Below are positions 41,253-60,076 of a DNA stretch of 64,000 bases, in pieces. The notes under the pieces were generated by a model. That model was given only the letters and a program-made list of their open reading frames with translations. It ran no database searches and was not told the origin of the DNA. Location of the stretch: positions 64,001 through 128,000 of the forward strand of contig CAZFHY010000005.1 of the NCBI GenBank assembly GCA_964519305.1, in the 5' to 3' direction. Position numbers and translations under genes: made by a program. This DNA is from Candidatus Undinarchaeota archaeon. GTDB lineage: Archaea; SpSt-1190; JASMDC01. How positions within the stretch are numbered: position 1 is the first letter of the stretch; the number at the start of each line of letters is the position of its first letter.

Positions 41253-41267
41253 GACGGGTGACTGCTC

Positions 41268-42020
41268 GTGATCATCGCGGTCTCAGGTAAAGGCGGTACG
41301 GGCAAGACGTTCGTCGCCAGCGTACTGGTCACACAGCTACGCAAGACGTTCCCTGAGGCGGCAATCCTTGCCGTCGATGCCGATCCGGACGCCAACCTGG
41401 CTTTCGCCCTCGGTCTCGAGATGTCCCGCTCCATAGGGGATGTCCGTGAGCAGTTGCTGGCCGAGAAGGACAAGCTCGCCCCCAGCGTTACGAAGCGTGA
41501 GTGGTTGGACGGCCAGGTCTTCGAGGTTACAATCGAGGGGCCGAACTGTGACCTGCTCATCATGGGCAGGCCGGAGGGACGGGGGTGCTACTGCTCGGTC
41601 AACCATCTGCTGAGGAACATCATCGACAGTGCAAAGGACAGCTATGACCACGTTGTGATCGATGCCGAGGCCGGGCTCGAGCACCTGAGCAGGACGACGA
41701 CCAGGGATGTCGATACCTTGGTCGTGGTCACGGACCAATCCCTGAACTCCCTCAAGACCGCCTGTTCGATTCGCACGATGTCCAATGACCTGAAGCTCAA
41801 TGTCGGTAAGCTACTCGTCGTCGGGAACAAGATCCGTGATGGACAGGCTGATTTATTCCAATCAAAAGCCCAGGAAATGGGTCTCGATATCGACGCTATC
41901 GTCCCGTTCGACGAACACGTGACCGAGCTCGACCTAGAGGGCCGCCCCGTGGCGTCGCTCAAGGAAGGGTCGCCCGCCCTTGCGGCCGTCACTGAACTGG
42001 GAAACAGTATCTTTTCATGA
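41268..42020 (+). CDS. cooC: CooC/AcsF-type nickel insertion ATPase
   Basis: GKGGTGKT, DADPD.NL, MGRPEG.GCYC, D.EAGLEHLSR motifs. Confidence 0.95.
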   Translation: MIIAVSGKGGTGKTFVASVLVTQLRKTFPEAAILAVDADPDANLAFALGLEMSRSIGDVREQLLAEKDKLAPSVTKREWLDGQVFEVTIEGPNCDLLIMGRPEGRGCYCSVNHLLRNIIDSAKDSYDHVVIDAEAGLEHLSRTTTRDVDTLVVVTDQSLNSLKTACSIRTMSNDLKLNVGKLLVVGNKIRDGQADLFQSKAQEMGLDIDAIVPFDEHVTELDLEGRPVASLKEGSPALAAVTELGNSIFS

Positions 42021-42035
42021 TAGGTAGTGATCACC

Positions 42036-43256: not shown

Positions 43257-43260
43257 AAGG

Positions 43261-44664: not shown

Positions 44665-45491
44665 AGATCGGGATTATCAAGACTGGCAACATAGGTATCT
44701 CACCGCTCATCGACCTCGTGCTTGACGAGCGAGCGGACCGGGAGGACCTCACGTTCATAGCACGGACATCGGGACCCAAGATGGACCCTGAGAGCTCACA
44801 GGAGGTGGCCGCGTCCCTTATCGCCGATAAACCGGACCTGGTCCTGTACTCGACACCGAACGCCGCTATCGCTGGCCCCAAGGTGGTGCGTAAGCTTCTT
44901 TCCGAAGCGGGCATCCCGAGCATCGTGTTCAGCGACGGACCAGCGGCACGCGCGAAGGAGGACTTCGAGGCCGAAGGACTGGGGTACGTCCTGATCAAGG
45001 GCGACCCCCTCATCGGGGCCCGACGAGAGTTCCTGGACCCCACCGAGATGGCCTTGTTCAACTCCGACATCATCCGCGTCCTCTCCGGGACGGGCGTGGT
45101 CCGGCACATCGTCGAACTGCTGGACACAGCTATCGAGCGGATCAAGAGCGGCACGCTCGGGTCCGACGACCTGCCACGGATAGTCATCACAGCACGCACC
45201 GTGGCCAAGATGGGATACTACCAGAACCCCTATGCGCTCGCCAAGGCAATGGCCGCCTATCGCATGGCCGAGAACGTGGCCGCAATCGACTTCGAGGCAT
45301 GCTTCAAGCTCAAGGAGGAACGAGATTACGTTCTGATGGCGGCCACCGCTCACGAAGTACTGGCCGCGGCCGCACGTCTGGTCGACGAGGCACGGGAGAT
45401 CGAGAAAGGCAACGACACCGTGCTGAGGACATCGCATTCCAAGAGCGGCAAGGTGACCGAACGGTCCGGACTGCTCGAGGGGGCGGACTGA
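44652..45491 (+). CDS. mtd: F420-dependent methylene-H4MPT dehydrogenase
   Basis: KIGIIK.GNIG, LDERADRED, SG.KM.P, D..IGARREFLDPTEMALFN.D, NPYA.AKA.AA, ARE.EK..D.V.R motifs. Confidence 0.97.
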   Translation: MERVKIGIIKTGNIGISPLIDLVLDERADREDLTFIARTSGPKMDPESSQEVAASLIADKPDLVLYSTPNAAIAGPKVVRKLLSEAGIPSIVFSDGPAARAKEDFEAEGLGYVLIKGDPLIGARREFLDPTEMALFNSDIIRVLSGTGVVRHIVELLDTAIERIKSGTLGSDDLPRIVITARTVAKMGYYQNPYALAKAMAAYRMAENVAAIDFEACFKLKEERDYVLMAATAHEVLAAAARLVDEAREIEKGNDTVLRTSHSKSGKVTERSGLLEGAD

Positions 45492-45493
45492 CC

Positions 45494-46357
45494 GTGATCA
45501 TCGAGGACACATTCTCCGAAGTGTTCGGCACCAAGTGCGGGCGGTTCCTAGTGACCGCTTCGAACGAGCGGTGGGCACGCATCGCCGCCCAATCGGCCGT
45601 GGGATTCGCTACGTCAATCATCTTCTGTCCCGCAGAGGCAGGTATCGACACGTTCGTCGAGTCAGGGCCCGACGGTCGACCAGGATATGTGGTGATGATC
45701 ACCCACCCAAGCGGAAAAGTGCTGAAAGAACAGCTTTTGGAGCGGATCGGTCAATGCGTCCTCACGGCGCCTACGACGGCCTGCTTCAACCTCATCGAAT
45801 CGGAGGAACCCTATCCCATTGGCAAGATGATGAACTACTTCGGTGACGGTTATGGGACGGCGCTCGAACGGTGGGGGCGAAAGCTCTACTCGATCCCTAT
45901 CATGGGAGGAGACTTCCTTATCGAGGAGTCCTTCGGGTACGCGAAAGGGTACTCGGGCAACCTCTGGATCATGGTCAATGATGCTGAGAAGGGTCTTGCT
46001 GCGTGCGAGCGTGTCATCGAGCGGATCAGTGGGATGGAGGGGATCATTGCACCCTTCCCGGGCGGCATCTGCTCGTCCGGATCGAAGGTCGGTTCCATAA
46101 AGTACAAGTTCCTCAAAGCATCCACCAATCACGAATATTGCCCCACGATCAAAGACAATGTGGATGCCACGAAAGTCCCCGAGAACGTGGTGGGCATCTA
46201 CGAGTTCATCTTCAATGCGGTCGACCTCGATACTCTGACGAAGGGCTTCAAGAGCGCGGTGGACGTGCTCGCTGACGCCGAGGGGATTGAACGCATCTCG
46301 GCAGGTAACTACGGGGGCAAGCTCGGGCCCGAGAAGATCTACCTACGGGAGCTCTGA
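45494..46357 (+). CDS. ftr: Formylmethanofuran:H4MPT formyltransferase
   Basis: IEDTF.E.F, GFATS.I.CP.EAGID, PDGRPG, RIGQCVLT.PTTA.F, SGSKVGS, STN...CPT, AGNYGGKLG motifs. Confidence 0.97.
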   Translation: MIIEDTFSEVFGTKCGRFLVTASNERWARIAAQSAVGFATSIIFCPAEAGIDTFVESGPDGRPGYVVMITHPSGKVLKEQLLERIGQCVLTAPTTACFNLIESEEPYPIGKMMNYFGDGYGTALERWGRKLYSIPIMGGDFLIEESFGYAKGYSGNLWIMVNDAEKGLAACERVIERISGMEGIIAPFPGGICSSGSKVGSIKYKFLKASTNHEYCPTIKDNVDATKVPENVVGIYEFIFNAVDLDTLTKGFKSAVDVLADAEGIERISAGNYGGKLGPEKIYLREL

Positions 46358-46382: not shown

Positions 46383-46841
46383 ATGGTACGTGCGATGGAT
46401 TTCTACAATCTCCTGCCCAAGACGAACTGCGAGAAGTGCCCGCAGAAATCGTGCATGGCGTTCGCTATGGCGCTCCTGAAGAACGAGGCGAAGCTGGAGG
46501 ATTGCCTTCCAGTGACGGCCGAGGATTTCCAGGAGAACAGGGAGAAGCTCTTAGAGCTCCTTGAGACCATCAAGGATGCTGAGGCCTCAGGCCTGATCGT
46601 GCATGAGGAGCTCTGTGACGGATGCGGCAACTGTCTCGTGGCATGCCCCGTCAACGTCGTCGATCCAAAAGCTGCTGGGGGGAAGGGGCCCGACACCGAC
46701 GAGGTCATCATGAAGGTCATCAACGGTCGCATCAAGATCATCAATCTAGAGGTATGCCGCCGCGTATCGGGCGAGGTGGCCACACGAACGTGCCGGGTAT
46801 GCGGAGAGGCCTGCCCCAAGAAGGCGTTCGAGTTCATCTGA
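46383..46841 (+). CDS. fwdG: Formylmethanofuran dehydrogenase subunit G (N-terminal Fe-S domain plus 2[4Fe-4S])
   Basis: LLPKTNC.KC...SCMAFA; GL.VHEELC.GCGNC.VACPVN...GGKGP. Confidence 0.85.
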   Translation: MVRAMDFYNLLPKTNCEKCPQKSCMAFAMALLKNEAKLEDCLPVTAEDFQENREKLLELLETIKDAEASGLIVHEELCDGCGNCLVACPVNVVDPKAAGGKGPDTDEVIMKVINGRIKIINLEVCRRVSGEVATRTCRVCGEACPKKAFEFI

Positions 46842-46851: not shown

Positions 46852-47262
46852 ATGGGATTCCTTATCCTAGCACCACCGATAAAATGCACCCTGGTCACGG
46901 TTCGGACCGCGCGGCAGGGTGAGGCCATGGAAATGGGTAAGCTCACCCAGGAGTACCAGGAAGAGTGCTCCACCGTCCTCATGGACGAGGATGATATGAA
47001 ACGGCTCCGCGTCAAGGAGGACTCCATCGTGAAGGTCACGACCAAGACGGGCTCAGTCGAGCTCAGGGTACGACCGGTCACGAACTCTCCGGGCGTCATC
47101 GCTGTACCGCTCGGCCCGTGGGCGAACTCGCTCATCCCATCCGACACATCTCATACCGGGATGCCGTCGTACAAAGGGATCCCGGCCGAGGTGTCCGCGT
47201 CCATGGGACAGGCGATCACGAGTCTTGACAGACTGCTCGGTGATCTGTACGGGGGTGCCTGA
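46852..47262 (+). CDS. fwdD: Formylmethanofuran dehydrogenase subunit D
   Basis: T.RT..QG...E.GK...Y, P.GPWAN.L....T..TGMP.YKG motifs. Confidence 0.95.
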   Translation: MGFLILAPPIKCTLVTVRTARQGEAMEMGKLTQEYQEECSTVLMDEDDMKRLRVKEDSIVKVTTKTGSVELRVRPVTNSPGVIAVPLGPWANSLIPSDTSHTGMPSYKGIPAEVSASMGQAITSLDRLLGDLYGGA

Positions 47263-47263
47263 G

Positions 47264-48631
47264 ATGGCCGAGGAGGAGAAGGTCACGAACATCAAGCCCG
47301 ATCTCACTGATGTCACTGACGTCACGTGCCCGTTCTGCGGCAACCTCTGCGACGACATCCATATCAAGAGGACGGGCGACGACGAGGCCGAGGTCCATCA
47401 CGCGTGCGGTGTTGGATACTACAAGTTCAAGAAGTTCATCACCAAGGGGGCACCTAGGAAGAACCTGCTCAGAAAGAAGAGCGGTGACAAGAAGGCCTCT
47501 GACGACACGTTCAAGGAGGCCAAGCTGGACGCGTGCATCGACAAGGCGGCCGAGCTGCTCATCGCCGCCAAGAAACCGGTGCTCTTCGGCTGGGCATCCA
47601 CATCGGTGGAGGCGATCCGGGAAGGTATCGCCCTTTCTGAGGAGGTCGGCGGTATTATCGACCAGACCACTTCGGTCTGTCATGGCCCCTCCACACTAGC
47701 TGTCCAGGACGTGGGCATCTCTTCGTGCACCCTCGGGACGGTCCTCAACCATGCGGACCTCATCATCTACTGGGGATGCAATCCCTCCGAGGCCCACCTG
47801 CGGCACATGAGTAGATATACAGTCTACCCCAGGGGTGCCTTCAGGGAGAAGGGACGCCAGGACCGGGAGGTCGTGGTCGTCGACGTCAGGGAGACCTCGT
47901 CCACGAGTGTCGCCACCCAGTTCATCAAGGTGGACCCGAACACGGACTACGAACTGGTCCACGCGCTCAGGCTCGCCATGAAGGGCGAGGAGCTACCGGA
48001 CGAGATACCTGGGACCGGTGTCACCAAGAAGCAGGTCATGAAGCTCGCCCAAAGGCTCAAGCGCTCCAAGTTCTGCGCGTTCTTCTTCGGTCTCGGGCTG
48101 ACCATGACACGCGGAAGGCACCGGAACATCGATGCCATCCTCTCTCTGGGTGCCGAGCTCAACAAGGACACGAAGGTCGTCATCCGGCCCATGAGGGGAC
48201 ACTACAACGTCGCTGGCGCTGCTGAAGTGTTCACCTGGCAGACGGGGTACCCGTACGCTGTGGACCTCACGAGGGGGTATGCCAGATACAATCCTGGCGA
48301 GACCTCGCTGGTCGACCTCTTGGTACGGGATGATGCTGACTGCCTGTTCATCGTCGCGTCCGATCCGGTCGCGCACTTACCGAAGGAGGCCGCACGACGG
48401 TTCGGCAATCTGCCTGTTATCGTCATCGATCCTCACGCTACCATCACTTCGAAGTTCGCCGACGTCTACTTCCCGTGCGCGGTCACGGGTGTCGAATCCG
48501 AGGGCACCGCCTATAGGATGGACGGGGTCCCGATTAAGCTGAAGAAGGTCATCGACAGTGACCTGCCATCTGACACGGAGATCGTCGCCAATATCCTTGA
48601 ACGTGTCAAGAAGAAGAGAGGGGGTAAGTAG
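47264..48631 (+). CDS. fwdB: Formylmethanofuran dehydrogenase subunit B (Cys form)
   Basis: CPFCGNLCDD, SVCHGPS, WGCNP..AH.RHMSRY, PMRGHYNV motifs. Confidence 0.97.
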   Translation: MAEEEKVTNIKPDLTDVTDVTCPFCGNLCDDIHIKRTGDDEAEVHHACGVGYYKFKKFITKGAPRKNLLRKKSGDKKASDDTFKEAKLDACIDKAAELLIAAKKPVLFGWASTSVEAIREGIALSEEVGGIIDQTTSVCHGPSTLAVQDVGISSCTLGTVLNHADLIIYWGCNPSEAHLRHMSRYTVYPRGAFREKGRQDREVVVVDVRETSSTSVATQFIKVDPNTDYELVHALRLAMKGEELPDEIPGTGVTKKQVMKLAQRLKRSKFCAFFFGLGLTMTRGRHRNIDAILSLGAELNKDTKVVIRPMRGHYNVAGAAEVFTWQTGYPYAVDLTRGYARYNPGETSLVDLLVRDDADCLFIVASDPVAHLPKEAARRFGNLPVIVIDPHATITSKFADVYFPCAVTGVESEGTAYRMDGVPIKLKKVIDSDLPSDTEIVANILERVKKKRGGK

Positions 48632-48632
48632 G

Positions 48633-50309
48633 ATGGGACTGATACTCAAGAACGGTATAGTCTTCGATCCCAAGAACGGGATCCGCGGCGAGAAGATGGA
48701 CCTATTCATCAAGGACGGGAAGATAGTCGCTGAGAAAGACCTCGGAAAGAAGTCCGATACTATCGACCTAGTAGGTAAGGTCGTGTTCCCGGGCGGCGTC
48801 GACATCCATGCTCATATCGCCGGCTCGAAGGTGAACAGCGGTCGGCTCTTCCGACCAGAGGACAGCCGGATGCGCACCGTCCCGAGAACGAACGTCACAC
48901 GGGCCGGGTCAGGCTTCTCCGTACCTACCACGTACCTTACCGGGTATACATACTCGGAGATGGGCTACACCACGGTCATCGAGCCCGCGGTCCCGCCGCT
49001 GAAGGCCAGGCACACTCACGAGGAGTTCCACGATATCCCCATGCTCGACAAGACCGGGCTCCTACTCCTGGGCAACAACCATCAGGTCATCGAGTACCTC
49101 AAGGCCGGTGACCTCGACCGGTGCAGGGAGTGGGTCGCTTGGATGCTCTTGGCCACAAAGTGCTATGGTATCAAGTGCGTGAACCCGGGTGGTACGGCCA
49201 GCTGGGCGTGGGGCAAGAACGTGGAAGGCCTCGACGATCCCTGCACGTACTTCGAGGTAACGCCGCGGGAGATCATCCGTGGGCTCGTGGACATCAACGA
49301 GAACCTCGGTCTCCCTCATGCGGTCCATCTGCACTGCAACAACCTCGGCGCACCCGGTAACTATACGACCGCTATCGAGACAATCGACGCCGTCAAGGAC
49401 CTCAAGAACAAGGAACGGTCCGTCCTGCACCTCACCCACCTGCAGTTCAACGGGTATGGTGGCGACTCCTGGAAGACGTTCGAGTCCAAGGGGGTCGAGC
49501 TCGCCGAGAAGATAGACAAGACCCCGAACATCACGGTGGACACGGGGAACGTCTGCTTCGAGCCCACGACGACCATGACGGCCGACGGGCCCTTCGAGTT
49601 CCATCTCCACCGGCTCAGCAAGCAGAAATGGGTCAACTTCGACGTGGAGCTAGAGGCGGGTACCGGGATCGTGCCCTACGAGTACAAGAAGAACGTCAGC
49701 GTGAACGCGGTCCAGTGGGCCGTCGGTCTCGAGATGGTCCTTGCGCTAAAGGACCTCACGAAGATACACCTGACCACGGACCATCCGAACGGTGGCCCCT
49801 TCACGTGCTATGCAGAGATGATCGCGTGGCTCATGTCCAAGAAGGCCAGGGCCGAGACGATAGCAACGCTCCACGACGCTGTGAAGAGCAGGGCTGCGAT
49901 CTCAGACTTGGACCGTGAACTTGACCTCTTCGATATCTGTCTGATCACGCGCGGAACCGCACAGACCCTCGGTCTCGCGAACAAGGGTCATCTTGGTATC
50001 GGTGCCGACGCGGACGTCGCCGTGTACGACATCGGTGTCGAGGAGAAGGACGGGGCCAAGATCGAGCGTGCTTTCAGGCATTGTGCCTACACCATCAAGG
50101 GCGGAGAACTCGCGGTCAAGGACGGGAAGGTCGTCAATTCCGTTACGGGAAAGACGCTCTGGATCGACACGAAGCCGAAGGTGGACGCCATCGAGAAGGA
50201 CCTGAGAAAGCGGTTCGAAGCATATTACTCCGTATCGCTCGATAACTACCCCGTCGATATGAGCTATCTGGGGGAGAGCGAGATGGTCATGAAGAGGTGT
50301 AAGAAATGA
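48633..50309 (+). CDS. fwdA: Formylmethanofuran dehydrogenase subunit A
   Basis: DIHAHIAG.KVN.GR..RPED, K.VNPGG, HLHCNNLG, THLQF, TTDHPNGGPF motifs. Confidence 0.97.
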   Translation: MGLILKNGIVFDPKNGIRGEKMDLFIKDGKIVAEKDLGKKSDTIDLVGKVVFPGGVDIHAHIAGSKVNSGRLFRPEDSRMRTVPRTNVTRAGSGFSVPTTYLTGYTYSEMGYTTVIEPAVPPLKARHTHEEFHDIPMLDKTGLLLLGNNHQVIEYLKAGDLDRCREWVAWMLLATKCYGIKCVNPGGTASWAWGKNVEGLDDPCTYFEVTPREIIRGLVDINENLGLPHAVHLHCNNLGAPGNYTTAIETIDAVKDLKNKERSVLHLTHLQFNGYGGDSWKTFESKGVELAEKIDKTPNITVDTGNVCFEPTTTMTADGPFEFHLHRLSKQKWVNFDVELEAGTGIVPYEYKKNVSVNAVQWAVGLEMVLALKDLTKIHLTTDHPNGGPFTCYAEMIAWLMSKKARAETIATLHDAVKSRAAISDLDRELDLFDICLITRGTAQTLGLANKGHLGIGADADVAVYDIGVEEKDGAKIERAFRHCAYTIKGGELAVKDGKVVNSVTGKTLWIDTKPKVDAIEKDLRKRFEAYYSVSLDNYPVDMSYLGESEMVMKRCKK

Positions 50310-51082
50310 AGATCATCCTGCGGTCCAAGAACAAGGTCGACAAAATCAATGTCGAGGTCGATGGGATCAACCACCAGCTCTTCGGGATGGCCCTTGCCCA
50401 GATCAAGAAGGTAACCGTCCACCAAGGGAACCAGCAATGCTCATTGGGTGACTTCTTCGATGTGAGCATCGAGGATGCGAAGGGTAAAGGCCGACTGATC
50501 GTGCTCGAAGGCGACGACCTGGGCAGGTTCAAGCGCATCGGCGAGGCCCTCGAAGAGGGTGAGGTCCAGGTGAACGGGGATTGCGGTATGTACTGCGGTT
50601 ACCTTATGTCGGGCGGTAGGATCGTTGTGGAGGGTAACTGCGACGCGTTCTGTGGCATGGACATGACCGGTGGCGAGCTCGTCGTCAAGGGCAATGCATC
50701 GGACTACCTGGGCGCGGCCTACCGCGGTGAGTCCGCGGGCATGAAGGGTGGCAAGATCACCGTGCACGGGAACGCAGGTGTCGAGGTGGGCAGCAGGCTC
50801 GCCGGCGGCATGATCGTCATCAAGGGTGACACTGACCTGTTCACTGGGATCCACATGAAGAAGGGGCTCATCGTCATCGAGGGCACGGCCGGTCTACGAG
50901 TCGGCGCCCAGATGACCGGCGGGACTATCGTTCTCTCTAAGGGAGAGCTTCTGCCCGGGTTCAAGGAAGGTGAACCTGTCAAGGATCCCGATATCGAGGG
51001 CGAGGGATTCAGCGGGGACTACAGAACGTTCGCCGGAGACCTCGTTGAGAACGGAAAGGGGACAGTCCTCCTCAAGGATTGA
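50306..51082 (+). CDS. fwdC: Formylmethanofuran dehydrogenase subunit C
   Basis: GXGXG beta-helix repeats; G.AYRG...GMKGG motif. Confidence 0.96.
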   Translation: MKIILRSKNKVDKINVEVDGINHQLFGMALAQIKKVTVHQGNQQCSLGDFFDVSIEDAKGKGRLIVLEGDDLGRFKRIGEALEEGEVQVNGDCGMYCGYLMSGGRIVVEGNCDAFCGMDMTGGELVVKGNASDYLGAAYRGESAGMKGGKITVHGNAGVEVGSRLAGGMIVIKGDTDLFTGIHMKKGLIVIEGTAGLRVGAQMTGGTIVLSKGELLPGFKEGEPVKDPDIEGEGFSGDYRTFAGDLVENGKGTVLLKD

Positions 51083-51109: not shown

Positions 51110-52525
51110 ATGGGAACGAACGACGATATCCTAAAGGAGCTACTAGAGACGGAGCGGCTGAAGTTCTGTTTCCAGTGCGGTGTCTGCACCGCGAGCTGCC
51201 CGATGATGGAGCTGCTCCCTCATCACTATAACCCCCGGAGCCTTCTCCAAGGGCTTCCGTTCGATCCTGAGAAGGTCATGAACGGCAAGGCCATCTGGTT
51301 GTGCGCCTGGTGCTATCGATGTCACCAGCGATGCCCCCAGGGACTGAAGGTGCCCGAGCTCCTTCTGCAGATGAAGGATGCTGCGGCCGAGAGGGGGAAC
51401 CTTGAGGCGTTCAAGGAAGCCCTCGACATCATCAAGAACGAGATGCCCCTGCCCGCGATCTGCACGTACATCTGCTTCAATCCACTTCACGGCCACGTGG
51501 AAAAACCACAGGTCGTCGAAGCTCTCAAGGGTTTCATATCCGAGTATGAACAAATGATCAAAGGGGAAGAACCGCCCCCCATCACACATGACGAGAAGAT
51601 CGCCATCGTCGGTTCCGGTCCTGCAGGGCTCACGGCTGCCTGGGAGCTTGCCGGGAATGGGTATCCCGTCACTATCTTCGAGTGCCTGCCCGAGGCCGGG
51701 GGCATGCCGAGAAGGTGCATACCTGAGTTCAGGCTGCCCTCGAAGGCGCTCGACGCCGACATCCAGCGGATCGAGAACCGGGGTGTGGACATCAGGACTG
51801 GGACCAAATCACCTGAGATCGACGACCTCCTAGAGGAGGGCTATCAGGCGGTGTTCGTCGCCACGGGCCTCCATATGAGCAGAAGGATCGGTATCAAGGG
51901 CGAGGACCTGGAAGGGGTCTACGATGTCCTCGACTTCCTCAGCGGGACGAAAACGGGAACACGGTTCGAGCTCGGGGACAAGGTCGTGGTCATCGGAGGA
52001 GGCAATGTGGCCATGGACGGTGCCCGGGCCGCATTGCGGCTCGGTGCCAAGGAGGTCCATATCGTCTGCGGTGAGTCGCGGGAGGAGATGCCTGCGTTCG
52101 AGCCCGAGATCGAGGAGGCCGTTGAAGAGGGCGTTATCCTCCATCCGGGATGGATGCCCACGCGGATCATTGAGAATGAAGGACGATGTACGGGCGTGGA
52201 GAGCCTGAAGTGTCTGTCGGTGTTCGATCCCAAGGGATTATTCTGCCCGAAGGTCGAGGCCGGAACAGAGTCCGTCGTGGAGGGTGATTCCATTATCGTC
52301 GCCATCGGGATGGGATTGGATCCCGGGGTTCTCAGGGCGTTCAAGCTCGCGGGAAGGGGCACCATCATCGCGGACCCGTTCAGTATGGAGTCGAGCCAGC
52401 CCGGTGTGTTCGCCGGTGGGGACGCCGTGTCGGGACCCGCCTCAGCAATGGAGGCGATCATTGCCGGAAAGCGGGCCGCCACATCGATCGACATGTATCT
52501 CACGGGCAGAGCGGAGGGGAGCTGA
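51110..52525 (+). CDS. Fusion of an HdrC-like 2[4Fe-4S] domain and a GltD/NfnB-type FAD/NAD(P)H oxidoreductase
   Basis: N-terminus CFQCGVCTASCP...YNPR...IWLCAWCYRCHQRCPQG (HdrC signature); then PLPAIC..IC, GSGPAG, IPEFRLP, GGGNVAMD, AGGDAVSGP. Confidence 0.88.
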   Translation: MGTNDDILKELLETERLKFCFQCGVCTASCPMMELLPHHYNPRSLLQGLPFDPEKVMNGKAIWLCAWCYRCHQRCPQGLKVPELLLQMKDAAAERGNLEAFKEALDIIKNEMPLPAICTYICFNPLHGHVEKPQVVEALKGFISEYEQMIKGEEPPPITHDEKIAIVGSGPAGLTAAWELAGNGYPVTIFECLPEAGGMPRRCIPEFRLPSKALDADIQRIENRGVDIRTGTKSPEIDDLLEEGYQAVFVATGLHMSRRIGIKGEDLEGVYDVLDFLSGTKTGTRFELGDKVVVIGGGNVAMDGARAALRLGAKEVHIVCGESREEMPAFEPEIEEAVEEGVILHPGWMPTRIIENEGRCTGVESLKCLSVFDPKGLFCPKVEAGTESVVEGDSIIVAIGMGLDPGVLRAFKLAGRGTIIADPFSMESSQPGVFAGGDAVSGPASAMEAIIAGKRAATSIDMYLTGRAEGS

Positions 52526-52529
52526 TACC

Positions 52530-54971
52530 ATGGTGAAAGGAAAAGCTAGCAAGAAGGCATCAGAGTCCTCCAGTGATGACAGCGAGATACGTGTCGGTGT
52601 GTACGTTTGTCATTGCGGTCTGAACATCGCCGGATCGGTCGACTGCGTGGATGTCGCCAAGTTCGCGGCCACGCTACCGAACGTCGTCGTCGCGAAGGAC
52701 AACAAGTACTGCTGCTCGGACCCTGGGCAGGAGGAGATCAAGAAGGACATAAAGGAGCAGAGATTGAACAGGGTCGTTGTCGCATCCTGCACACCACGCC
52801 TCCATGAGCCCACCTTCCGGAATGCCTGCGAGGATGCAGGACTGAACAAGTACCTGTTCGAGATGGCCAACATCCGGGACCACTGCAGCTGGGTCCACCT
52901 CTATGAGAAGGAGAAGGGTACCCAGAAGGCAAAGGACCTGGTCCGGATGGCCGTGTCCAAGGTCTCCCTGCTCAAGCCCCAGGTGGAGCTCGAAGTGCCC
53001 GTGATAAGGAAGACCCTTGTCGTCGGCGGCGGAGTCGCCGGGCTCCAGGCCGCATTGGACCTCGGTAACGCGGGATACCAGGTATATCTCGTTGAGAAGG
53101 AACCGAGCATCGGGGGCAGAATGGCCCAGATCGATAAGACATTCCCTACTCTGGACTGCTCCATCTGCATCCTTGCACCGGTGATGTCCGACGTCGGTCG
53201 TCACCCGAACATCGAGCTAATGGCCAACAGCGAGGTCGTGAACGTCGCAGGGTACATCGGGAACTTCACGGTGACGGTCAAGAAGAAGCCGTGGTACGTC
53301 GTTGAGTGCAACAGCTGTGGCGACTGCGCCAAGGTCTGCCCGGTCCAGGTCCCCAACAAGTTCGACGCCAACTTCGCCCCACGCAAGGCCATCTACACGC
53401 CCTTCGCCCAGGCCGTCCCATCGTGCTACATCGTCGACATGGACCACTGCATCAGATGTCATGAGTGCGTCAAGGCGTGCAAGGCCTCGGGTGCAGGGGC
53501 CATCGACCTCAGGCAGGAGCCCGAGGAGGTCGAGATCGAGGTGGGCACAGTCATCATCGCCACCGGTGCGGACGTGTACGATCCCTCAGCGTTGAAAGCG
53601 TACGGGTACGGACGGTTCCCGAACGTCATCAGCGCTCTGGAGTTCGAGCGTATGATCAATGCCGGGGGACCTTCCGGCGGCCACCTTATCCGGCCCAGCG
53701 ACCGCGAGATCCCGAAGTCGGTAGCGTTCGTCCAGTGCGTAGGATCGCGCTCTGAGAAGTGCGGCCAGCCGTACTGCAGCAGCGTCTGTTGCATGAACAC
53801 GCTCAAGGACGCCCTGCTCATCAAGGAGCACTGGCCTGACACCAAGATCTACGTGTTCTACGTGGACATGCGTTGCTTCGGCAAGGGGTACGAGGACCTC
53901 TACCGAAGGGCGAAAGCTGCGGGCGTGGTGTTCATCCGCGGACTGCCCGCCGAGATCTTCGAGCGCAAGGGAGGTGACCTGCGTATGGTCGGGGAGAACA
54001 CCCTGCAGAAGGAGCTGTTCAACATCGAGTGCGAGATGGCTATCCTTTCCATTGGTCTGAAACCGGGAGAGGACGCCGATACGATCCAACGTCTCTTCAA
54101 CCTCTCTAGGACCGCGGACGGATTCTTCATGGAGGCGCACCCCCAGCTCAAGCCAGTGGACGCACCCACCGGGGGGATCTTCTTCGCCGGATGCGCCGAG
54201 TCGCCAAAGGCCATCAAGGACAGCGTGACCCAGGCCGGCGCGGCCGCGGCCCATGCGAACATCCTCATGGCAAGGGGGAAGGTGACCGTGGAGGCCATCA
54301 CGCCACAGTTGATCGAGGAGAAGTGCAGGGGCTGTGGCCTCTGCGCCAAGGTCTGCCCCTATAACGCCATCGCATTCGACAAGGAGACGAAGAAAATTTC
54401 AATCATCGAGGCCGCGTGTCATGGCTGCGGTACCTGTGGTGCGGAATGCCCCACGAACGCCCTTGTCATGCGCCACTTCACCGACGAGCAGATTTTCTCA
54501 CAGATCGACGCGGCCACCGCGGAGAACGCTGACAAGAAGATCGTCGCGTTCTGCTGCAACTGGTGCTCCTACGCAGGCGCGGACTTCGCTGGTGTGAGCC
54601 GCATGCAGTACCCGCCCAGCGTGCGCATCATACGGATGATGTGCTCGGGGAGGATGGCCACGAAGTTCATCGAGCGGGCCTTCGCACGAGGGGCCGCTAC
54701 GGTGCTCGTCTCGGGCTGTCACATCGGCGACTGCCACTACATAGACGCCAACCACTATGCCAAGAAACGTGTGGAGCGCTTCTGGAAGCGGATGGACAAG
54801 CTTGGCCTTGACAAGGACCGGTTGCACCTGGGATGGTTCTCTGCTGCCGAGGGAGAGCGGTTCTCCAACAAGATCAAGGAAATGGACGCCATCGTTGGGA
54901 AGGTGACGAAGGCTGAGCTGGACAAGACGAAGAAAGCCTTCGAGAAAGCCCTAGGGGGTGGTGACCGATGA
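52530..54971 (+). CDS. hdrA: Heterodisulfide reductase subunit A fused to MvhD
   Basis: GVYVCHCG.NIAG, ASCTPR.HE.TF, ANIR..CSWVH, GGGVAG, DKTFPT.DCS.CIL, QCVGSR, YCSSVCCM; C-terminal FCCNWCSYAGAD.AG..R.QYP...CSGR...GCHIGDCHY (MvhD). Confidence 0.97.
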   Translation: MVKGKASKKASESSSDDSEIRVGVYVCHCGLNIAGSVDCVDVAKFAATLPNVVVAKDNKYCCSDPGQEEIKKDIKEQRLNRVVVASCTPRLHEPTFRNACEDAGLNKYLFEMANIRDHCSWVHLYEKEKGTQKAKDLVRMAVSKVSLLKPQVELEVPVIRKTLVVGGGVAGLQAALDLGNAGYQVYLVEKEPSIGGRMAQIDKTFPTLDCSICILAPVMSDVGRHPNIELMANSEVVNVAGYIGNFTVTVKKKPWYVVECNSCGDCAKVCPVQVPNKFDANFAPRKAIYTPFAQAVPSCYIVDMDHCIRCHECVKACKASGAGAIDLRQEPEEVEIEVGTVIIATGADVYDPSALKAYGYGRFPNVISALEFERMINAGGPSGGHLIRPSDREIPKSVAFVQCVGSRSEKCGQPYCSSVCCMNTLKDALLIKEHWPDTKIYVFYVDMRCFGKGYEDLYRRAKAAGVVFIRGLPAEIFERKGGDLRMVGENTLQKELFNIECEMAILSIGLKPGEDADTIQRLFNLSRTADGFFMEAHPQLKPVDAPTGGIFFAGCAESPKAIKDSVTQAGAAAAHANILMARGKVTVEAITPQLIEEKCRGCGLCAKVCPYNAIAFDKETKKISIIEAACHGCGTCGAECPTNALVMRHFTDEQIFSQIDAATAENADKKIVAFCCNWCSYAGADFAGVSRMQYPPSVRIIRMMCSGRMATKFIERAFARGAATVLVSGCHIGDCHYIDANHYAKKRVERFWKRMDKLGLDKDRLHLGWFSAAEGERFSNKIKEMDAIVGKVTKAELDKTKKAFEKALGGGDR

Positions 54972-56698
54972 GGTGCATGTTGAACACGGGCAGAACGGTC
55001 GGCCAGGGCATGGCCTTAGAGGTCGGCAAGACATCGGCGGAGTACTACGATGAAGTGGCCGTGGCGTTCATGAACGGGGACGACATGGATGACCTGGGGA
55101 TCGCGGAGAACGCGCCCGTCAAGGCCTCTTCGGGCTCAGGTTCTGTCGTTGTCCGGGCAAGAAAGGGTCAGCTAGATCGCGGCAACGTGTTCATCCCCGT
55201 GGGCCCTTGGGCGAACGCCCTCATCGGTGGTGATACCGGGGGTACTGGTATGCCACGGTTCAAGGGCATGTGGATCGAACTATCCAAGACCGAGGACGGG
55301 CCAACATCACTCAACGACCTTCTCCCGAGCAAGGATGAGATCGTCCAAGCTCCCGACCAGTCCCCTCCCCCCACATCTTCCGATGAGGACGAGCGATCGA
55401 TCGTCACGGACGTGGTCTGTCCATTCTGCGGTTGTCTGTGCGACGACGTGGAGCTCGTGATGACAAAGGGGAAGATCACTGACATCGAGATCGGGTGCGA
55501 CATCACCAGGAGCAGGTTCGTCAACTGGGACCGTGACCGGGCGAAGGCCGCGGTGAGGAAGAAGGGAAAGCTCGTGGAAGTACCCCTCAAGGAGGCTTTG
55601 GACAAGGCCGCCGATATCCTGAAGGGAGCGGACTTCCCATTGATCTACGGACTCAGTTCCACCGAGGTCGACGCTCAGCGGCGTGCCATCGAGCTCGCCG
55701 AGCTGCTCGGAGCGACCATCGACAACACATCCTCCGTATGCCATGGACCGACCGTGGTGGCCGCCCAGGACGTCGGCGTGTCAAAATGCACGCTCGGTGA
55801 GGTACGGAACCGGGCGGACCTGGTGATCTACTGGGGATGCAACCCCGCCGAAGCCCATATCAGGCACATCACACGCTATTCGGGGACACCCGAGGGCATG
55901 TACTCTCCTGATGGAAGGGATGATCGCACAATCGTCCACGTGGACGTAAGGGAGACAAAGACCTCCCAGGTGGATCCCCGATGGAAGTACACCTACCAGC
56001 TGGCGGACCAGTTCATCAAGGTCCGGCAGGGCCAGGACTATGAACTCCTGTCCGCGCTTCGGGCCACGCTCAAAGGGCACGATGTGGGTGACGTTGCAGG
56101 CGTCCCGGCCAGCGCCATCAAGGAGCTGGCCGACCGGATGAAGAGCTGTAAGTTCGGTATCATCTTCTTCGGTCTGGGGCTTACCATGTCCGATGGACGT
56201 CACATGAACGTCAATGCGGCCTTGCGCCTTGTCAGGGACCTGAACGACCATACGAAGTTCACCATCCTCCCCATGCGAGGCCATTACAACGTGACGGGGA
56301 TCAACGCGGTCATGACGTGGACCACAGGCTATCCCTTCGCCGTCAACCTATCACGAGGCTACCCGGTGTACAATCCGGGAGAGTTCTCGGCCGTTGACAT
56401 GCTGGCCCGTAAGGAGTGCGATGCCGCGTTAATCATCGCATCTGACCCCGCCGCTAACTTCCCACGGGAAGCGGTCGAACACCTGTCGAAGATACCCACG
56501 ATCGTCATCGATCCGAAGCTCAACCTCACCTCGCCCATCGCCGATGTCCTGATCCCTTCAGCGATCGCCGGTATCGAATGCGAGGGGACCGCCTACAGAA
56601 TGGACGGCATCCCCATCAGGCTCCGAAAGGTGGTCGAGTCCGACCAGCTGCCTGATAAGGTCGTCCTTGAAAAGCTCATCGAGAGGGTGAGACCATGA
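54968..56698 (+). CDS. fwdB: Formylmethanofuran dehydrogenase D::B fusion (second set)
   Basis: N-terminal D domain (TGRT..QG...E.GK, P.GPWAN, TGMP.FKG); Pro/Ser/Asp linker; B domain (CPFCGCLCDD, SVCHGPT, PMRGHYNV). Confidence 0.95.
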   Translation: MRCMLNTGRTVGQGMALEVGKTSAEYYDEVAVAFMNGDDMDDLGIAENAPVKASSGSGSVVVRARKGQLDRGNVFIPVGPWANALIGGDTGGTGMPRFKGMWIELSKTEDGPTSLNDLLPSKDEIVQAPDQSPPPTSSDEDERSIVTDVVCPFCGCLCDDVELVMTKGKITDIEIGCDITRSRFVNWDRDRAKAAVRKKGKLVEVPLKEALDKAADILKGADFPLIYGLSSTEVDAQRRAIELAELLGATIDNTSSVCHGPTVVAAQDVGVSKCTLGEVRNRADLVIYWGCNPAEAHIRHITRYSGTPEGMYSPDGRDDRTIVHVDVRETKTSQVDPRWKYTYQLADQFIKVRQGQDYELLSALRATLKGHDVGDVAGVPASAIKELADRMKSCKFGIIFFGLGLTMSDGRHMNVNAALRLVRDLNDHTKFTILPMRGHYNVTGINAVMTWTTGYPFAVNLSRGYPVYNPGEFSAVDMLARKECDAALIIASDPAANFPREAVEHLSKIPTIVIDPKLNLTSPIADVLIPSAIAGIECEGTAYRMDGIPIRLRKVVESDQLPDKVVLEKLIERVRP

Positions 56699-58314
56699 GC
56701 CTGATCATAGAGAACGGCACCGTCTACGATCCCGCGAACGGGATCGACGGGGAACGGATGGACATCTTCATCAAGGACGGAAAGATCGTCGAGGAAGCGA
56801 AGGGAAAGGTCATCGATGCCACGGGCCTCATCGTCCTCCCGGGCGGTATGGACATACATACCCACATCGCTGGAGGGAAGGTGAACCTTGGCCGGCTGTT
56901 CAGACCGGAGGACCATCGCAAGGATCCTGTGCCGAGGACCGCGGTCTCGCGTGCGGGGACGGGATACTCGGTCCCGACGACCTACGTGACAGGGTACCGT
57001 TACGCGACCATGGGATACACCACGGTGATGGAACCGGCGATCACCCCGCTCTCGGCCCGTCACACGCACGAGGAGCTGGTCGACACACCCATCCTGGACA
57101 AGGCGGGCTACACCCTCCTTGGTAACAACCACTTCGTCATGCACTACATCAAGGAGGGGGACCGGGAGAATCTCAAGAACACCGTTGCCTGGTTCCTGGG
57201 TGCGTCGAAGGGGTACGCCGTGAAACTTGTGAATCCCGGTGGTGTGGAGAACTGGAAGTGGGGCCGTGACGTGGAGAGCCTCGACGATCCAGTGGACAAC
57301 TACGAGGTCACACCACGGGAGGTGCTCGCAGGTCTCGCCAGAGCGAACGAGGAGCTGGGCCTCCCTCATCCCATCCACGTGCACGCCAACAATCTGGGCA
57401 TGCCCGGTAACTATGAGACCACCATCAAGACCATCGACGCCGTCAAGGAGCGTCTCCATCTCACTCACCTGCAGTTCCAGGCGTACACCGGCGAGGGATG
57501 GAAGGACTTCGGTTCCGGGATGGCCGAAATCGCGAAGCTGATCAACAAGCGCGACAACGTGACCTGCGACATGGGACAGGTGATTTTCGACGACACTACC
57601 ACCATGACCGCTGATGGTCCGGCACAGCACCATCTGTACAAGCTGACGAAGAACAAGTGGTTCAACGCGGACGTCGAGATGGAGACGGGGGCCGGCATAG
57701 TCCCGTACAGGTACTTGGAGAGGAATCCGGTCAACGCAGTGCAGTGGGCCATCGGGCTCGAGGTCGCGCTCATGATCACGGATCCCTGGAAGGTAAGCCT
57801 CACGACCGACCACCCCAACGGCGGTCCTTTCTACCACTACCCGAAAATCATCTCTTGGTTGATGAGCAAGAAGGAGCGAGAGACCACCCTTGGTACGATC
57901 CACAAGGCCGCGGCCGCCAGGGCGGCACTGGCGAGCCTTGACAGGGAGTACTCGCTCTATGAGATCGCAGTGATAACGCGAGCGGCCACTGCCAAGGCTC
58001 TCGGGCTAACAGGGAAGGGGCATCTGGGTGTCGGGGCCGACGCGGACCTGGCCATCTACCGTTTCTCAGAGGACGATATCGAGGGCTCGTTCAAACGCAC
58101 GGTCTACACGATCAAGGACGGAAAGATCGTCGTGAAGAACGGGGCCGTGGTCGACACGCCCGAGGGCAGGACCTATTGGATAGATGCTGGTGGTGAGCTC
58201 ACCGACGAGGACCGTCAGGTGTTCACGAAGTACTACACGATGACACCGGATAACTACCCCGTGCAGGCCGAGTATCTGCCACGAGGGGAAGCTGTTCGAA
58301 CCGGAGGGAGCTAA
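56695..58314 (+). CDS. fwdA: Formylmethanofuran dehydrogenase subunit A (second copy)
   Basis: DIHTHIAG.KVN.GR, KLVNPGG, HVHANNLG, THLQF, TTDHPNGGPF motifs. Confidence 0.97.
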   Translation: MSLIIENGTVYDPANGIDGERMDIFIKDGKIVEEAKGKVIDATGLIVLPGGMDIHTHIAGGKVNLGRLFRPEDHRKDPVPRTAVSRAGTGYSVPTTYVTGYRYATMGYTTVMEPAITPLSARHTHEELVDTPILDKAGYTLLGNNHFVMHYIKEGDRENLKNTVAWFLGASKGYAVKLVNPGGVENWKWGRDVESLDDPVDNYEVTPREVLAGLARANEELGLPHPIHVHANNLGMPGNYETTIKTIDAVKERLHLTHLQFQAYTGEGWKDFGSGMAEIAKLINKRDNVTCDMGQVIFDDTTTMTADGPAQHHLYKLTKNKWFNADVEMETGAGIVPYRYLERNPVNAVQWAIGLEVALMITDPWKVSLTTDHPNGGPFYHYPKIISWLMSKKERETTLGTIHKAAAARAALASLDREYSLYEIAVITRAATAKALGLTGKGHLGVGADADLAIYRFSEDDIEGSFKRTVYTIKDGKIVVKNGAVVDTPEGRTYWIDAGGELTDEDRQVFTKYYTMTPDNYPVQAEYLPRGEAVRTGGS

Positions 58315-58315: not shown

Positions 58316-59125
58316 ATGGTCGTTCTCAAACCCAAGACCGAGTTCACGGTACCTGTCGAGGCAGAATGTATATCGCCCGATGTCTTCGCTGCACGGCCTG
58401 CAAAGGAGCTGGGAAAGCTCGAAGTGCTGTGGGGGAACAAGCTCAAGCCGCTGAGTGAGCTGTTCGAGATCGATCCATCAGGCAAGCTGGACGAGATCGT
58501 CATCGAGGGCGATGTCAGCGCCGTCAAGCACATCGGAGCACGGATGACCACGGGCCTGATAACCATCCACGGGAACGTCGGGATGCACCTCGGCAGAGAG
58601 ATGGACGGCGGCAGGATCATCGTCCACGGGGATGTCGGGGACTGGCTCGGCGCCGAGATGAAGGACGGCACCATCCAGGTCACTGGAAACGCTGGCCACC
58701 TAGCCGGAGCCGGCTACCGGGGCTCGAAGTCCGGTATGGCGGGCGGCACCATCATCATCGAAGGGAATGCTGGCGATGAGGTCGGGGAGCTGATGTGCGG
58801 CGGTACGATCGCCGTCGCTGGCGATCTGGGGACCTTCGCGGGGACGCTCATGACCGGTGGGACCATCGTGTGCCTCGGTGCTCTTGGCGGGCGGGCTGGG
58901 GGTGCGATGGAAGGTGGTACCATCATCGCCCTCACAACACCGCGGCTGCTCCCCACGTTCATCACACAGGGAGCCGATCGCCCTGCCCACGTAGGGGAGC
59001 TCCTGCAGCAGCTTAAGGGCAACGGATTCCCGCTCGCAGAGGAGCATATCGGAGCGCTCTTTGACAGGTACGAAGGTGATATTGCAGGTAAGGGAAAGGG
59101 CGAGGTCCTCGTCAGGATAGGATGA
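58316..59125 (+). CDS. fwdC: Formylmethanofuran dehydrogenase subunit C (second copy)
   Basis: VP.EAECISPD.FA, GXGXG repeats, GAGYRGS..GM.GG motif. Confidence 0.96.
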   Translation: MVVLKPKTEFTVPVEAECISPDVFAARPAKELGKLEVLWGNKLKPLSELFEIDPSGKLDEIVIEGDVSAVKHIGARMTTGLITIHGNVGMHLGREMDGGRIIVHGDVGDWLGAEMKDGTIQVTGNAGHLAGAGYRGSKSGMAGGTIIIEGNAGDEVGELMCGGTIAVAGDLGTFAGTLMTGGTIVCLGALGGRAGGAMEGGTIIALTTPRLLPTFITQGADRPAHVGELLQQLKGNGFPLAEEHIGALFDRYEGDIAGKGKGEVLVRIG

Positions 59126-59146: not shown

Positions 59147-60076
59147 ATGGGACTCAACGAAAGCAGCCTCGGGCTCGTCGAGCAATTGAAGGAAAGGTGC
59201 CCTACGCAGACCCTCGACTGTGGCGCCACGGTGATCGACTGCGGTGTGTCATGGAAAGGGAGCGTTCAGGCAGGGCTATTGTTCGCCAAGATCACCTTAG
59301 GAGGGCTGGCCGAGGTCCAGCTGTCAACCAGAAACGAGAAGGACCTGACCTACCCCGTGGTCGAGGTCCGCACCGACCACCCGACGACGGCCACCATCGC
59401 CTCGCAGATGGCAGGATGGCAGGTTGTCGCCGGGAAGTTCTTCGGCATGGGATCAGGTCCGGCCAGGGCGCTGGCCCTTAAACCCAAGGACGTTTACGAG
59501 GCCATCGACCACCAGCGCGAGGACGATGATGTTGCGGTACTATGCCTTGAGTCGAGTTCGCTCCCGAGCGATGATATTGCGAGGACCGTTGCCAAGGAGT
59601 GTGGTATCAAACCGCGGGACGTTCACCTTCTCGTGGCGCGGACGGACAGTATTACCTCATCGGTCCAGCTGGCAAGTCGGACGCTCGAGATGGGTACGTT
59701 CCGGATGCTCGACGTGCTCAAGTTCGACGTGCGGAAGGTCGTCTCGGCCTTCGGTGTTGCTCCGTTGGCACCCGTGTACAAGGGACTTGCTGCCATGGGG
59801 GCCACAAACGATGCCCTCATCTACGGGGGCGACAACCTGTACTTCATCGACGGCTTCAGTCAAGAGCTAACCGACAAGGTCGTCTCCGAGGGGTCCAAGA
59901 GCTACGGCAAGCGGTTCGAGCAGTTGTTCAAGGAGGCCGGGAAGGACTTCTATAAGATGGACCACGATATATTCGCCCCTGCCAAGGTAACGGTCAACGA
60001 CCTTGCTGCAGGGAGGGTGTATTGCGCCGGACACATCAACCTTGACGTGCTCCGAAAGGTGTTCGCTCAGTCTTGA
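59147..60076 (+). CDS. mch: Methenyl-H4MPT cyclohydrolase
   Basis: GATVIDCGV, LGGL, SQ.AGW, MGSGPARALA.KP, MG.TND...YGG, DFYK.D...FAPA motifs. Confidence 0.97.
   Translation: MGLNESSLGLVEQLKERCPTQTLDCGATVIDCGVSWKGSVQAGLLFAKITLGGLAEVQLSTRNEKDLTYPVVEVRTDHPTTATIASQMAGWQVVAGKFFGMGSGPARALALKPKDVYEAIDHQREDDDVAVLCLESSSLPSDDIARTVAKECGIKPRDVHLLVARTDSITSSVQLASRTLEMGTFRMLDVLKFDVRKVVSAFGVAPLAPVYKGLAAMGATNDALIYGGDNLYFIDGFSQELTDKVVSEGSKSYGKRFEQLFKEAGKDFYKMDHDIFAPAKVTVNDLAAGRVYCAGHINLDVLRKVFAQS

Follow-up and report, generated by a model that had tools for sequence, protein, structure and literature searches.

The HdrA2B2C2 complex of Methanosarcina acetivorans is an F420H2- and ferredoxin-dependent heterodisulfide reductase (Hdr), and its HdrA2 subunit alone was found to catalyse the ferredoxin-dependent reduction of coenzyme F420 (PMC5296606). 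In archaea that lack methyl-coenzyme M reductase (Mcr), the conservation of Hdr homologues has been called "puzzling" (PMC10667645), and a disulfide of unspecified identity has been invoked for the Hdr of such organisms (PMC9723716). Modules of the NfnB/GltD type joined to HdrA have also been described in print, as HdrL in Desulfobacterium autotrophicum and Syntrophobacter, as HdrA9-11 in ANME-1, where an NfnB-like insertion of about 500 amino acids lies in the ferredoxin domain, and as type III HdrA in ANME-1 and Bathyarchaeota (PMC2702500, PMC5947623, PMC9012536, PMC12054007). Here, we describe a different arrangement in a 64,000-nucleotide stretch of DNA, called the window below, which corresponds to positions 64001-128000 of contig C5 in a 3.63-Mb archaeal genome with a completeness of 99.83%. 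In it, a gene encoding an HdrC-type domain fused to an NfnB/GltD-like flavoprotein is followed directly by a gene encoding HdrA2 fused to MvhD. The recurrence of this pair suggests a predicted, hitherto undescribed arrangement in which NAD(P)H, and not the disulfide of the methanogens, would be linked to electron bifurcation.

The two genes and their principal domains are as follows (positions in the window, here and below):

51110-52525, plus strand: gene of the HdrC::NfnB-like fusion (471 amino acids, P0001; translation, Pfam, NCBIfam, matches in the Protein Data Bank (PDB), AlphaFold2 model and Foldseek)
51158-51346, plus strand: HdrC-type domain for two [4Fe-4S] clusters, residues 17-79 of the fusion (Fer4_8 and Fer4_17; eight Cys in two CxxCxxCxxxCP motifs)
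51407-52516, plus strand: NfnB/GltD-like FAD and NAD(P)(H) module, residues 100-469 of the fusion (Pfam, NCBIfam and PDB matches)
52530-54971, plus strand: HdrA2::MvhD, 813 amino acids (NF040770, 1207.7 bits)
54540-54896, plus strand: MvhD ([2Fe-2S]) domain, C-terminal in HdrA (PF02662, residues 671-789; genome coordinates C5:118540-118896)

The N-terminal part of the fusion contains the motifs C20-x2-C23-x2-C26-x3-C30-P and C65-x2-C68-x2-C71-x3-C75-P and is matched in Pfam by Fer4_8 (residues 17-79; 39.9 bits, with a cut-off of 27) and by Fer4_17 (37.5 bits, with a cut-off of 22.2). Among proteins of solved structure, residues 16-110 match HdrC chains with E-values from 1.5e-17 (5odc_C) to 1e-12, and the next PDB family, that of the Fe-S subunits of fumarate reductase, follows at 3e-4. 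The match, which ends near residue 124 of the 184 residues of HdrC, leaves the C-terminal part of that protein without a counterpart; the TIGR03290 model, which describes full-length HdrC, gives 65.7 bits for a cut-off of 160, over positions 2-87 of its 144. The HdrC-type domain is 30% identical to the genome's own HdrC.

Beyond these motifs come PLPAIC118TYIC122, the FAD-binding motif IAIVGSGPAGL (GxGxxG), VIGGGNVAMD (GxGxxA) and GVFAGGDA, and Pfam places Pyr_redox_2 over residues 163-450 (107.6 bits). Residues 100-469 match the sequences of NfnABC, Stn, NfnB and NfnI chains in the PDB with E-values of 1e-73 to 1e-51. The GltD-type Fe-S domain, Fer4_20, reaches 21.8 bits in the fusion, which is under its cut-off of 25.8, and an alignment with NfnB shows that C118 and C122 are all that is left from the second Cys group, the later Cys being absent. 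An internal contrast is provided by a canonical GltD-like paralogue located 28 kb upstream (22436-23899, minus strand), in which Fer4_20 scores 131 bits. This paralogue adjoins two genes for dehydrogenases of the glutamate/leucine type (the group spans 22436-26736, minus strand). A sequence-only reading of the window had proposed that an HdrC-type domain runs directly into a GltD/NfnB-type module from which the usual Fe-S domain has mostly gone, and the profile and structure-database searches bear this out. In effect, the HdrC-type domain replaces the GltD Fe-S domain, and the NfnB-like FAD/NAD(P) module replaces the HdrB-binding tail.

The AlphaFold2 model of the fusion, which was based on 30 homologues, has a predicted local distance difference test score (pLDDT) of 86.4 and a predicted template modelling score (pTM) of 0.88. 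Foldseek returned NfnI, NfnABC, NfnB and StnC as its top matches, with an E-value of 3.6e-36 to 5jca_L. In all 30 aligned homologues, there is no variation in the GxGxxA motif, in the FAD motif or in any of the eight HdrC-type Cys.

The window's HdrA exceeds the cut-off of 1100 bits set for HdrA2 in NF040770, and its C-terminal FlpD domain (residues 671-789) scores 159.5 bits in Pfam. Both ALEFERM and CCMNTLK are kept, as had been read from the sequence, and the Glu (E373) and the Lys (K426) in these motifs are invariant in 33 of 33 aligned HdrA sequences. The same 33 sequences share, without exception, the Cys groups of the N-terminal, the inserted-ferredoxin and the C-terminal ferredoxin domains, together with C403, C416, C420 and C421, and their alignment is free of insertions. 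The fusion and HdrA are separate genes: the TGA stop codon of the fusion ends at 52525, and the ATG of hdrA lies at 52530, after a gap of 4 nt, while the end of HdrA::MvhD (54971) overlaps by 4 nt with the ATG of a fused fwdD-B gene (54968). These coordinates agree with the earlier description of the spacing.

The exact 471-residue fusion was found on 12 contigs, which come from 4 sources. When metagenomes were scanned for two peptides specific to the family, WLCAWCY and CG[IKV]CTASCP, 596 stretches were returned, 474 of which encode relatives; the locus counts given below cover the best 80. The 120 protein clusters listed are 46-54% identical to the fusion and have the same Fer4_8/Fer4_17 plus Pyr_redox_2 architecture; three of them bear organism names, all Bathyarchaeota (P0015, P0096 and P0117). 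A relative with 89% identity is publicly labelled "Candidatus Undinarchaeales archaeon". Among 40 other archaeal genomes sampled, a full-length match was present only in the genome of the same genus. In this sister genome (L007) and on a metagenome contig (L080) whose fusion is 89% identical, the whole gene order is kept. Consequently, an assembly chimera, which would have undone the sequence-only reading, is ruled out by the 12 contigs from 4 sources, the synteny of the 89% relatives and the 474 metagenome relatives; the fusion is genuine.

The architecture and synteny search that had been called for shows that the pair recurs. In 72 of the 80 loci, no more than 400 bp separate the fusion from a gene for HdrA2::MvhD (at least 60% identity to that of the window, typically around 70%). 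This gene follows the fusion on the same strand in 59 loci, lies upstream in divergent orientation in 12 and precedes the fusion on the same strand in 1. In three others (L114, L117 and L125), split HdrA-like genes directly downstream of the fusion constitute a second way of pairing it with Hdr flavoproteins. The pieces of these split sets correspond to HdrA residues 180-590, then 21-253, then 344-787, with 40-52% identity. The remaining five loci have no HdrA and are uninformative on pairing because their contigs stop no more than 150 bp downstream of the fusion. Thus, none of the 80 contradicts the pairing. An in-frame TGA suspected in the second GltD-like gene (L076) was dismissed, since the match overruns the terminal stop and the open reading frame (ORF) is an uninterrupted one of 487 amino acids.

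What surrounds the pair is variable. In around 24 of the 80 loci, it adjoins genes for a small ferredoxin and for a 2-oxoacid:ferredoxin oxidoreductase (alpha, beta and gamma subunits), and in around 17 to 24, a 260-residue Fer4_11 protein lies upstream and/or a 303-residue polyferredoxin downstream. A cdhA or cdhC gene is close to the pair in two loci, and Fwd genes are beside it only in L080 and, outside the 80, in the sister genome. The pair is not specific to Fwd because its flanks vary in this way, with 2-oxoacid:ferredoxin oxidoreductase, polyferredoxin or cdh genes in other loci. What is conserved, therefore, is the pair of genes, which keeps company with ferredoxin-dependent low-potential enzymes in general. 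The earlier proposal of a repurposed Hdr-Fwd complex is narrowed by this survey: the Fwd sandwich does not define the system and is a lineage-specific setting confined to one genus.

The physical association of the two proteins was addressed by a predicted complex between HdrA::MvhD (with a 33-row alignment) and residues 1-160 of the fusion (with a 30-row alignment). The interface score (ipSAE) was 0.66, for 0.00 in the best of three controls; the tool's mark is reached by 58 of 80 solved complexes and by 2 of 110 mismatched pairs. Contact agreement between runs was at least 93%, and the pLDDT of the partner was at least 72. On the side of the fusion, the modelled interface involves residues 16-29, 33-44 and 74-78, around the cluster that has C20, C23, C26 and C75 as its ligands; on the side of HdrA, it involves residues 403-411, 414, 445-446, 471-475 and 487-496, next to the invariant Cys403, Cys416, Cys420 and Cys421. 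In the model, the fusion's HdrC-type domain takes up the place of HdrC on HdrA.

One explanation that would dispense with such docking is that the fusion is a free-standing ferredoxin:NAD(P) oxidoreductase of the NfnB/SudA type, co-regulated with HdrA2 and not bound to it. This would be in keeping with its NfnB-like fold and with the public names of its relatives, "glutamate synthase beta subunit-like" or "FAD-dependent oxidoreductase". It would leave unexplained that the pairing persists in 72 of 80 loci across changing flanks, commonly with short gaps such as the 4 nt in the window, and that the replacing domain is specifically of the HdrC type, as judged from the distance between its E-value and that of the next PDB family. 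Moreover, the predicted complex passed its controls, and no NfnA/PyrK-like gene adjoins the fusion. Taken on these grounds, a free-standing enzyme appears very improbable.

How does the pair compare with the systems described so far? It resembles HdrA2B2C2 (PMC5296606) in having an HdrA of type 2 with a fused MvhD and an adjoining di-cluster module of the HdrC type. It differs in that no HdrB lies alongside, that the HdrC module is truncated and runs into an NfnB-like flavoprotein, and that the host has no McrA. The likeness to HdrL, HdrA9-11 and type III HdrA lies in the association of an NfnB/GltD-type module for NAD(P)H with a bifurcating flavoprotein of the Hdr type, with MvhD nearby. In those proteins, however, the module is inside the HdrA polypeptide, within the inserted ferredoxin domain, which is the low-potential arm (PMC12054007). 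In the window, the module has a gene to itself, and a domain of the HdrC type stands in place of its degenerate GltD Fe-S domain; the module would therefore be on a different arm of HdrA from that of the HdrL insert, namely the arm that normally leads to HdrB.

The HdrL-like ORF that was scanned, from a Syntrophobacterales metagenome-assembled genome (L021), is a single one of 1498 amino acids in which Fer4_20 scores 67.9 bits; no match to Fer4_8 or Fer4_17 was listed in it at an E-value of 1e-5. The possibility that the fusion is itself an HdrL was thus ruled out, given that the insert in L021 has a canonical Fer4_20 and lacks a domain of the HdrC type. Alignments by tblastn that spanned fusion residues 20-466 in bacterial HdrA-like ORFs were likewise rejected as instances of the fusion, their N-terminal part being the first Cys motif of HdrA's inserted ferredoxin domain. 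A reading of the L021 TGA as selenocysteine was also rejected: the text past the first TGA is not protein-like, and the TGA was taken as a stop.

NfnAB, NfnABC and StnABC (4ylf, 5jca, 9bov, 9n5u and 8oh5) provide the best sequence and fold matches to residues 100-469 and have the same FAD and NAD(P) motifs. The fusion departs from them in having no NfnA/PyrK-like neighbour, in the replacement of the N-terminal two-cluster domain, in the absence of a YRR motif (see below) and in having HdrA2::MvhD as its partner. Indeed, Pfam and NCBIfam reveal neither an NfnA/PyrK-like nor a GltB partner next to the fusion, whose neighbours are fwdC and hdrA2. With the Fdh/Mvh-Hdr-Fmd/Fwd supercomplexes (7bkb), the window shares an hdrA embedded among tightly spaced or overlapping fwd genes; unlike the supercomplexes of the methanogens, it has no FwdF/FmdF above the cut-off, no HdrB in the cluster and no Mcr, and its link with Fwd is limited to a genus.

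In one passage of a Bathyarchaeia study, "MvhD/hdrA" is listed beside "MvhB", and no such fusion neighbour is mentioned there. In the literature covered by our search, which may have missed a prior mention in supplementary gene tables, there was no account of an HdrC::NfnB/GltD gene that stands alone and is paired with HdrA2::MvhD. By its domain content, the pair is a putative NAD(P)-linked variant of the Hdr-type complex, one made less unprecedented by the published NfnB-HdrA fusions and wired differently from them.

The mechanism we propose is that the HdrC-like di-cluster domain of the fusion would dock on HdrA2::MvhD at the site that HdrC occupies in HdrABC and would wire the flavin region of HdrA to the FAD of the NfnB-like module, where hydride would be exchanged with NAD(P)(H). 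NAD(P) would then take the branch held in methanogens by the heterodisulfide of coenzymes M and B (CoM-S-S-CoB). It is assigned to the HdrB-type arm because of the topology of the module, in which the HdrC-type domain is joined to the NfnB-like one. The low-potential branch would consist of ferredoxin or of ferredoxin-dependent enzymes encoded nearby, which are Fwd and CODH/ACS (carbon monoxide dehydrogenase with acetyl-CoA synthase) in the window and, in most relatives, 2-oxoacid:ferredoxin oxidoreductase. The mid-potential branch would involve a partner that meets either the flavin of HdrA or the MvhD domain; F420(H2) is the most likely candidate and H2, via MvhAG, an alternative. The case for F420(H2) is that the HdrA2 of M. 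acetivorans needs no other subunit to reduce F420 with ferredoxin; the window, moreover, encodes an F420-dependent Mtd. A two-subunit, HdrB-independent flavin and Fe-S complex of the Hdr type, with NAD(P) on the HdrB-type arm, is in this general form the probable explanation of the pair, and any specific set of substrates is held with less assurance.

If NAD(P)+ is the high-potential acceptor, a donor more reducing than NAD(P)+ is required. With potentials of about -340 to -360 mV for F420, about -320 mV for NAD and about -450 to -500 mV for ferredoxin, the overall reaction would be close to equilibrium, as that of Nfn is; an example is Fd(red) + NAD(P)H <-> 2 F420H2. It might run as confurcation, in which Fd(red) and NAD(P)H yield 2 F420H2, and the direction is not one that a sequence allows to be read. 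The idea, already present in the sequence-only reading, that an HdrC wire ends at an NAD(P)(H) site is supported in part, by the architecture, by the pairing and by a model placed at the HdrC position; the nucleotide site itself, in which YRR is missing, is of uncertain specificity.

This last point is the first of several that weigh against the proposed mechanism. After beta-2 of the dinucleotide domain, the window's fusion has IVCGES where five of five aligned solved homologues of the NADP type have YRR. Among 77 relatives from the metagenome loci, the motif was located in 71 and not in 6; it is YRR in 66 of the 71, CxES in 4 (including the 89% relative) and YKR in 1. The two Arg of YRR bind the 2'-phosphate of NADPH. 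Given this role and the presence of IVCGES in the window's copy, the latter may prefer NADH or may have a different binding mode, and its binding of pyridine nucleotides, or its specificity for them, is uncertain on this evidence. Another point is thermodynamic: with NADPH as the partner, the drive from F420H2 would be about zero. A third concerns the predicted complex. The HdrC-HdrA interface that the sequence-only reading had made a test was found, but because HdrABC complexes have already been solved (5odc, 7bkb and 8rvu), the model may have passed through likeness to these. The domain still resembles a docking-competent HdrC, and the binding remains a prediction. Finally, the genome encodes an hdrC-hdrB set that could in principle serve the window's HdrA, and there is no third-partner gene conserved beside the pair among the neighbours in the 80 loci. 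Each of these last two points opens the way to a rival explanation.

The hdrC-hdrB set is on contig C21 (C21:6565-10467, L160), where hdrC (218 amino acids) and hdrB (290 amino acids; TIGR03288, 338.9 bits for a cut-off of 345.15) are followed directly downstream by a second hdrA::mvhD (808 amino acids). Hence, the description of the system as HdrB-less is valid in the window and not for the genome. This set lends some substance to an alternative in which NAD(P)H is the mid-potential donor and feeds the HdrA flavin via the HdrC-like wire, in a manner resembling the proposals for Flx-Hdr and HdrL; the acceptor would be a disulfide reduced by the C21 HdrBC or a partner reached through the MvhD domain. 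NAD(P)H is indeed treated as a donor in the published HdrL, type III HdrA and Flx-Hdr proposals. Yet the cognate HdrA of the C21 hdrCB is more readily seen in the hdrA::mvhD that adjoins it, whose product is 35% identical to the window's HdrA and scores 721 bits with the HdrA2 model, under the cut-off of 1100. Nor is any HdrB-like protein present among the recurrent neighbour clusters of the 80 loci. In Flx-Hdr, moreover, the NADH module presumably enters through the MvhD-like FlxD and not through HdrC, whereas here the module is modelled at the HdrC position. With these arguments, NAD(P)H as donor is unlikely.

The absence of a third partner encoded beside the pair could mean that there is none, the pair being a linear, non-bifurcating oxidoreductase between NAD(P)+ and, for instance, F420H2 or ferredoxin; the flavin of HdrA would then serve as a converter between carriers of one and of two electrons. 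Two precedents would fit: HdrA2 alone has ferredoxin:F420 oxidoreductase activity (PMC5296606), and a FAD homologous to that of the module is non-bifurcating in GltD and in dihydropyrimidine dehydrogenase. A linear enzyme, on the other hand, would not need two extra routes for electron entry or exit, and HdrA retains its fused MvhD, its full Cys clusters and the bifurcation-linked Glu and Lys, the clusters and these two residues being without variation among the 33 sequences. A linear enzyme is, for these reasons, distinctly unlikely.

The remainder of the genome places the pair among other Hdr-type modules. The CCG (HdrB) domain occurs on contigs C21, C4 and C31 only and nowhere in the window; apart from the C21 HdrB, the other two CCG proteins are GlpC and a TfrB-like one. 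NiFe hydrogenase is found on contig C13 only, and FrhB/FdhB matches are on C16 and C13 only. The C13 genes (C13:69200-82350, L173) include a third HdrA (665 amino acids, 48% identical to that of the window) and form the string hdrA, an HdrA-N/NuoE-like fusion (447 amino acids), NuoF-like, NuoG-like, mvhD, two Fe-S proteins, PyrK/FlxA-like, a second mvhD, mvhG and mvhA. This PyrK/FlxA-like gene is the only one in the genome. By its gene content, the string is possibly an NADH- and H2-linked Hdr super-module. The organism, thus, has three Hdr-type modules, those of the window, C21 and C13, and that of the window is without HdrB. As for the genes that had been reported missing, hdrB, mvhAG, fdhB and fwdF are absent from the window, as stated, but hdrB and mvhAG are present elsewhere in the genome, on C21 and C13, respectively. 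The best match of the genome to FwdF/FmdF (NF042909) is 46.6 bits, for a cut-off of 375.

No McrA was found in this 99.83%-complete genome, which agrees with the view that the host need not make methane; no Mer was found in it either. Mtd (in two copies, one of them in the window) and CofE are present. One MetF-type reductase is encoded on C17. Despite the absence of McrA, there are two MtrA homologues, at C9:31826-32302 (163.8 bits) and C26:4152-4598 (156.5 bits). The 3.6-Mb genome and the 3.8-Mb sister, which is labelled "Candidatus Undinarchaeales archaeon", share a class with 15 genomes of 0.6-1.2 Mb. A large genome that encodes a Wood-Ljungdahl pathway among class-mates of DPANN size may be either a misplacement or a free-living relative.

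In the window, the pair is part of a run of genes on the plus strand that overlap one another or are separated by short gaps, from around 36.9 to 60.1 kb, in the order cdhA-cdhB-cdhC-cooC-like-cdhD-cdhE, mtd, ftr, a 152-residue Fe-S protein, fwdD-B-A-C, the fusion, HdrA2::MvhD, fwdDB-A-C and mch. The genes around the pair are as follows:

36967-44664, plus strand: cdhA, cdhB, cdhC, cooC-like, cdhD and cdhE, for CODH/ACS (NCBIfam and Pfam)
44661-45491, plus strand: mtd, F420-dependent (PF01993, 365 bits)
45299-46357, plus strand: ORF of ftr (TIGR03119, 344 bits; the family match begins at about residue 66)
46383-46841, plus strand: 152-residue Fe-S protein, directly 5' of fwdD (partial NCBIfam matches to a CdhE/RnfB-type N-terminal cluster domain and to ferredoxin)
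46852-47262, plus strand: fwdD of the first fwd set (set identified by TIGR03129, TIGR03121, TIGR03122 and NF042908)
47225-48631, plus strand: fwdB of the first set
48558-50309, plus strand: fwdA of the first set
50306-51082, plus strand: fwdC of the first set
54968-56698, plus strand: fused fwdD-B of the second fwd set (set identified by NCBIfam)
56695-58314, plus strand: fwdA of the second set
58316-59125, plus strand: fwdC of the second set
59147-60076, plus strand: mch (PF02289, 354.6 bits)

Ferredoxin- and F420-dependent C1 enzymes are, thus, encoded within the same operon-like string as the fusion. The two fwd sets are 33-56% identical to each other, according to cross-matches against the sister locus. 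The 152-residue Fe-S protein is kept with 92% identity in L007 and L080; it is a candidate for electron entry to Fwd and may substitute for FwdG or FwdF. Beyond mch, a 723-residue ORF (60493-62664, minus strand) has no Pfam match at an E-value of 1e-5.

The role of Hdr in archaea without Mcr is an acknowledged open question, and the module offers a testable answer to it, in which a pyridine-nucleotide site replaces the disulfide branch. The placing of this NAD(P) arm, which differs from that in HdrL and type III HdrA, makes the pair a natural comparison for the re-wiring of Hdr-type bifurcation. It is a compact two-gene unit that recurs on hundreds of environmental contigs and is routinely mis-annotated. 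Since annotation of the fusion usually goes no further than "glutamate synthase beta-like" or "FAD-dependent oxidoreductase", metabolic reconstructions of acetogens of the Bathyarchaeia type probably miss the module that it would form with HdrA2. A more specific proposal, which is tentative and on balance doubtful, is that the pair is the heterodisulfide-free bifurcating engine of Mcr-less archaea with a tetrahydromethanopterin-based (H4MPT) Wood-Ljungdahl pathway, for example this lineage and Bathyarchaeia, in which NAD(P)+ would accept the high-potential electrons and F420H2 or H2 would donate, and that it powers Fwd or 2-oxoacid:ferredoxin oxidoreductase. If this were so, the pair would supply low-potential electrons for the conversion of CO2 to formyl-methanofuran by the flanking Fwd or, in most relatives, for reductive carboxylation, and it would account for the retention of Hdr homologues by archaea without CoM-S-S-CoB.

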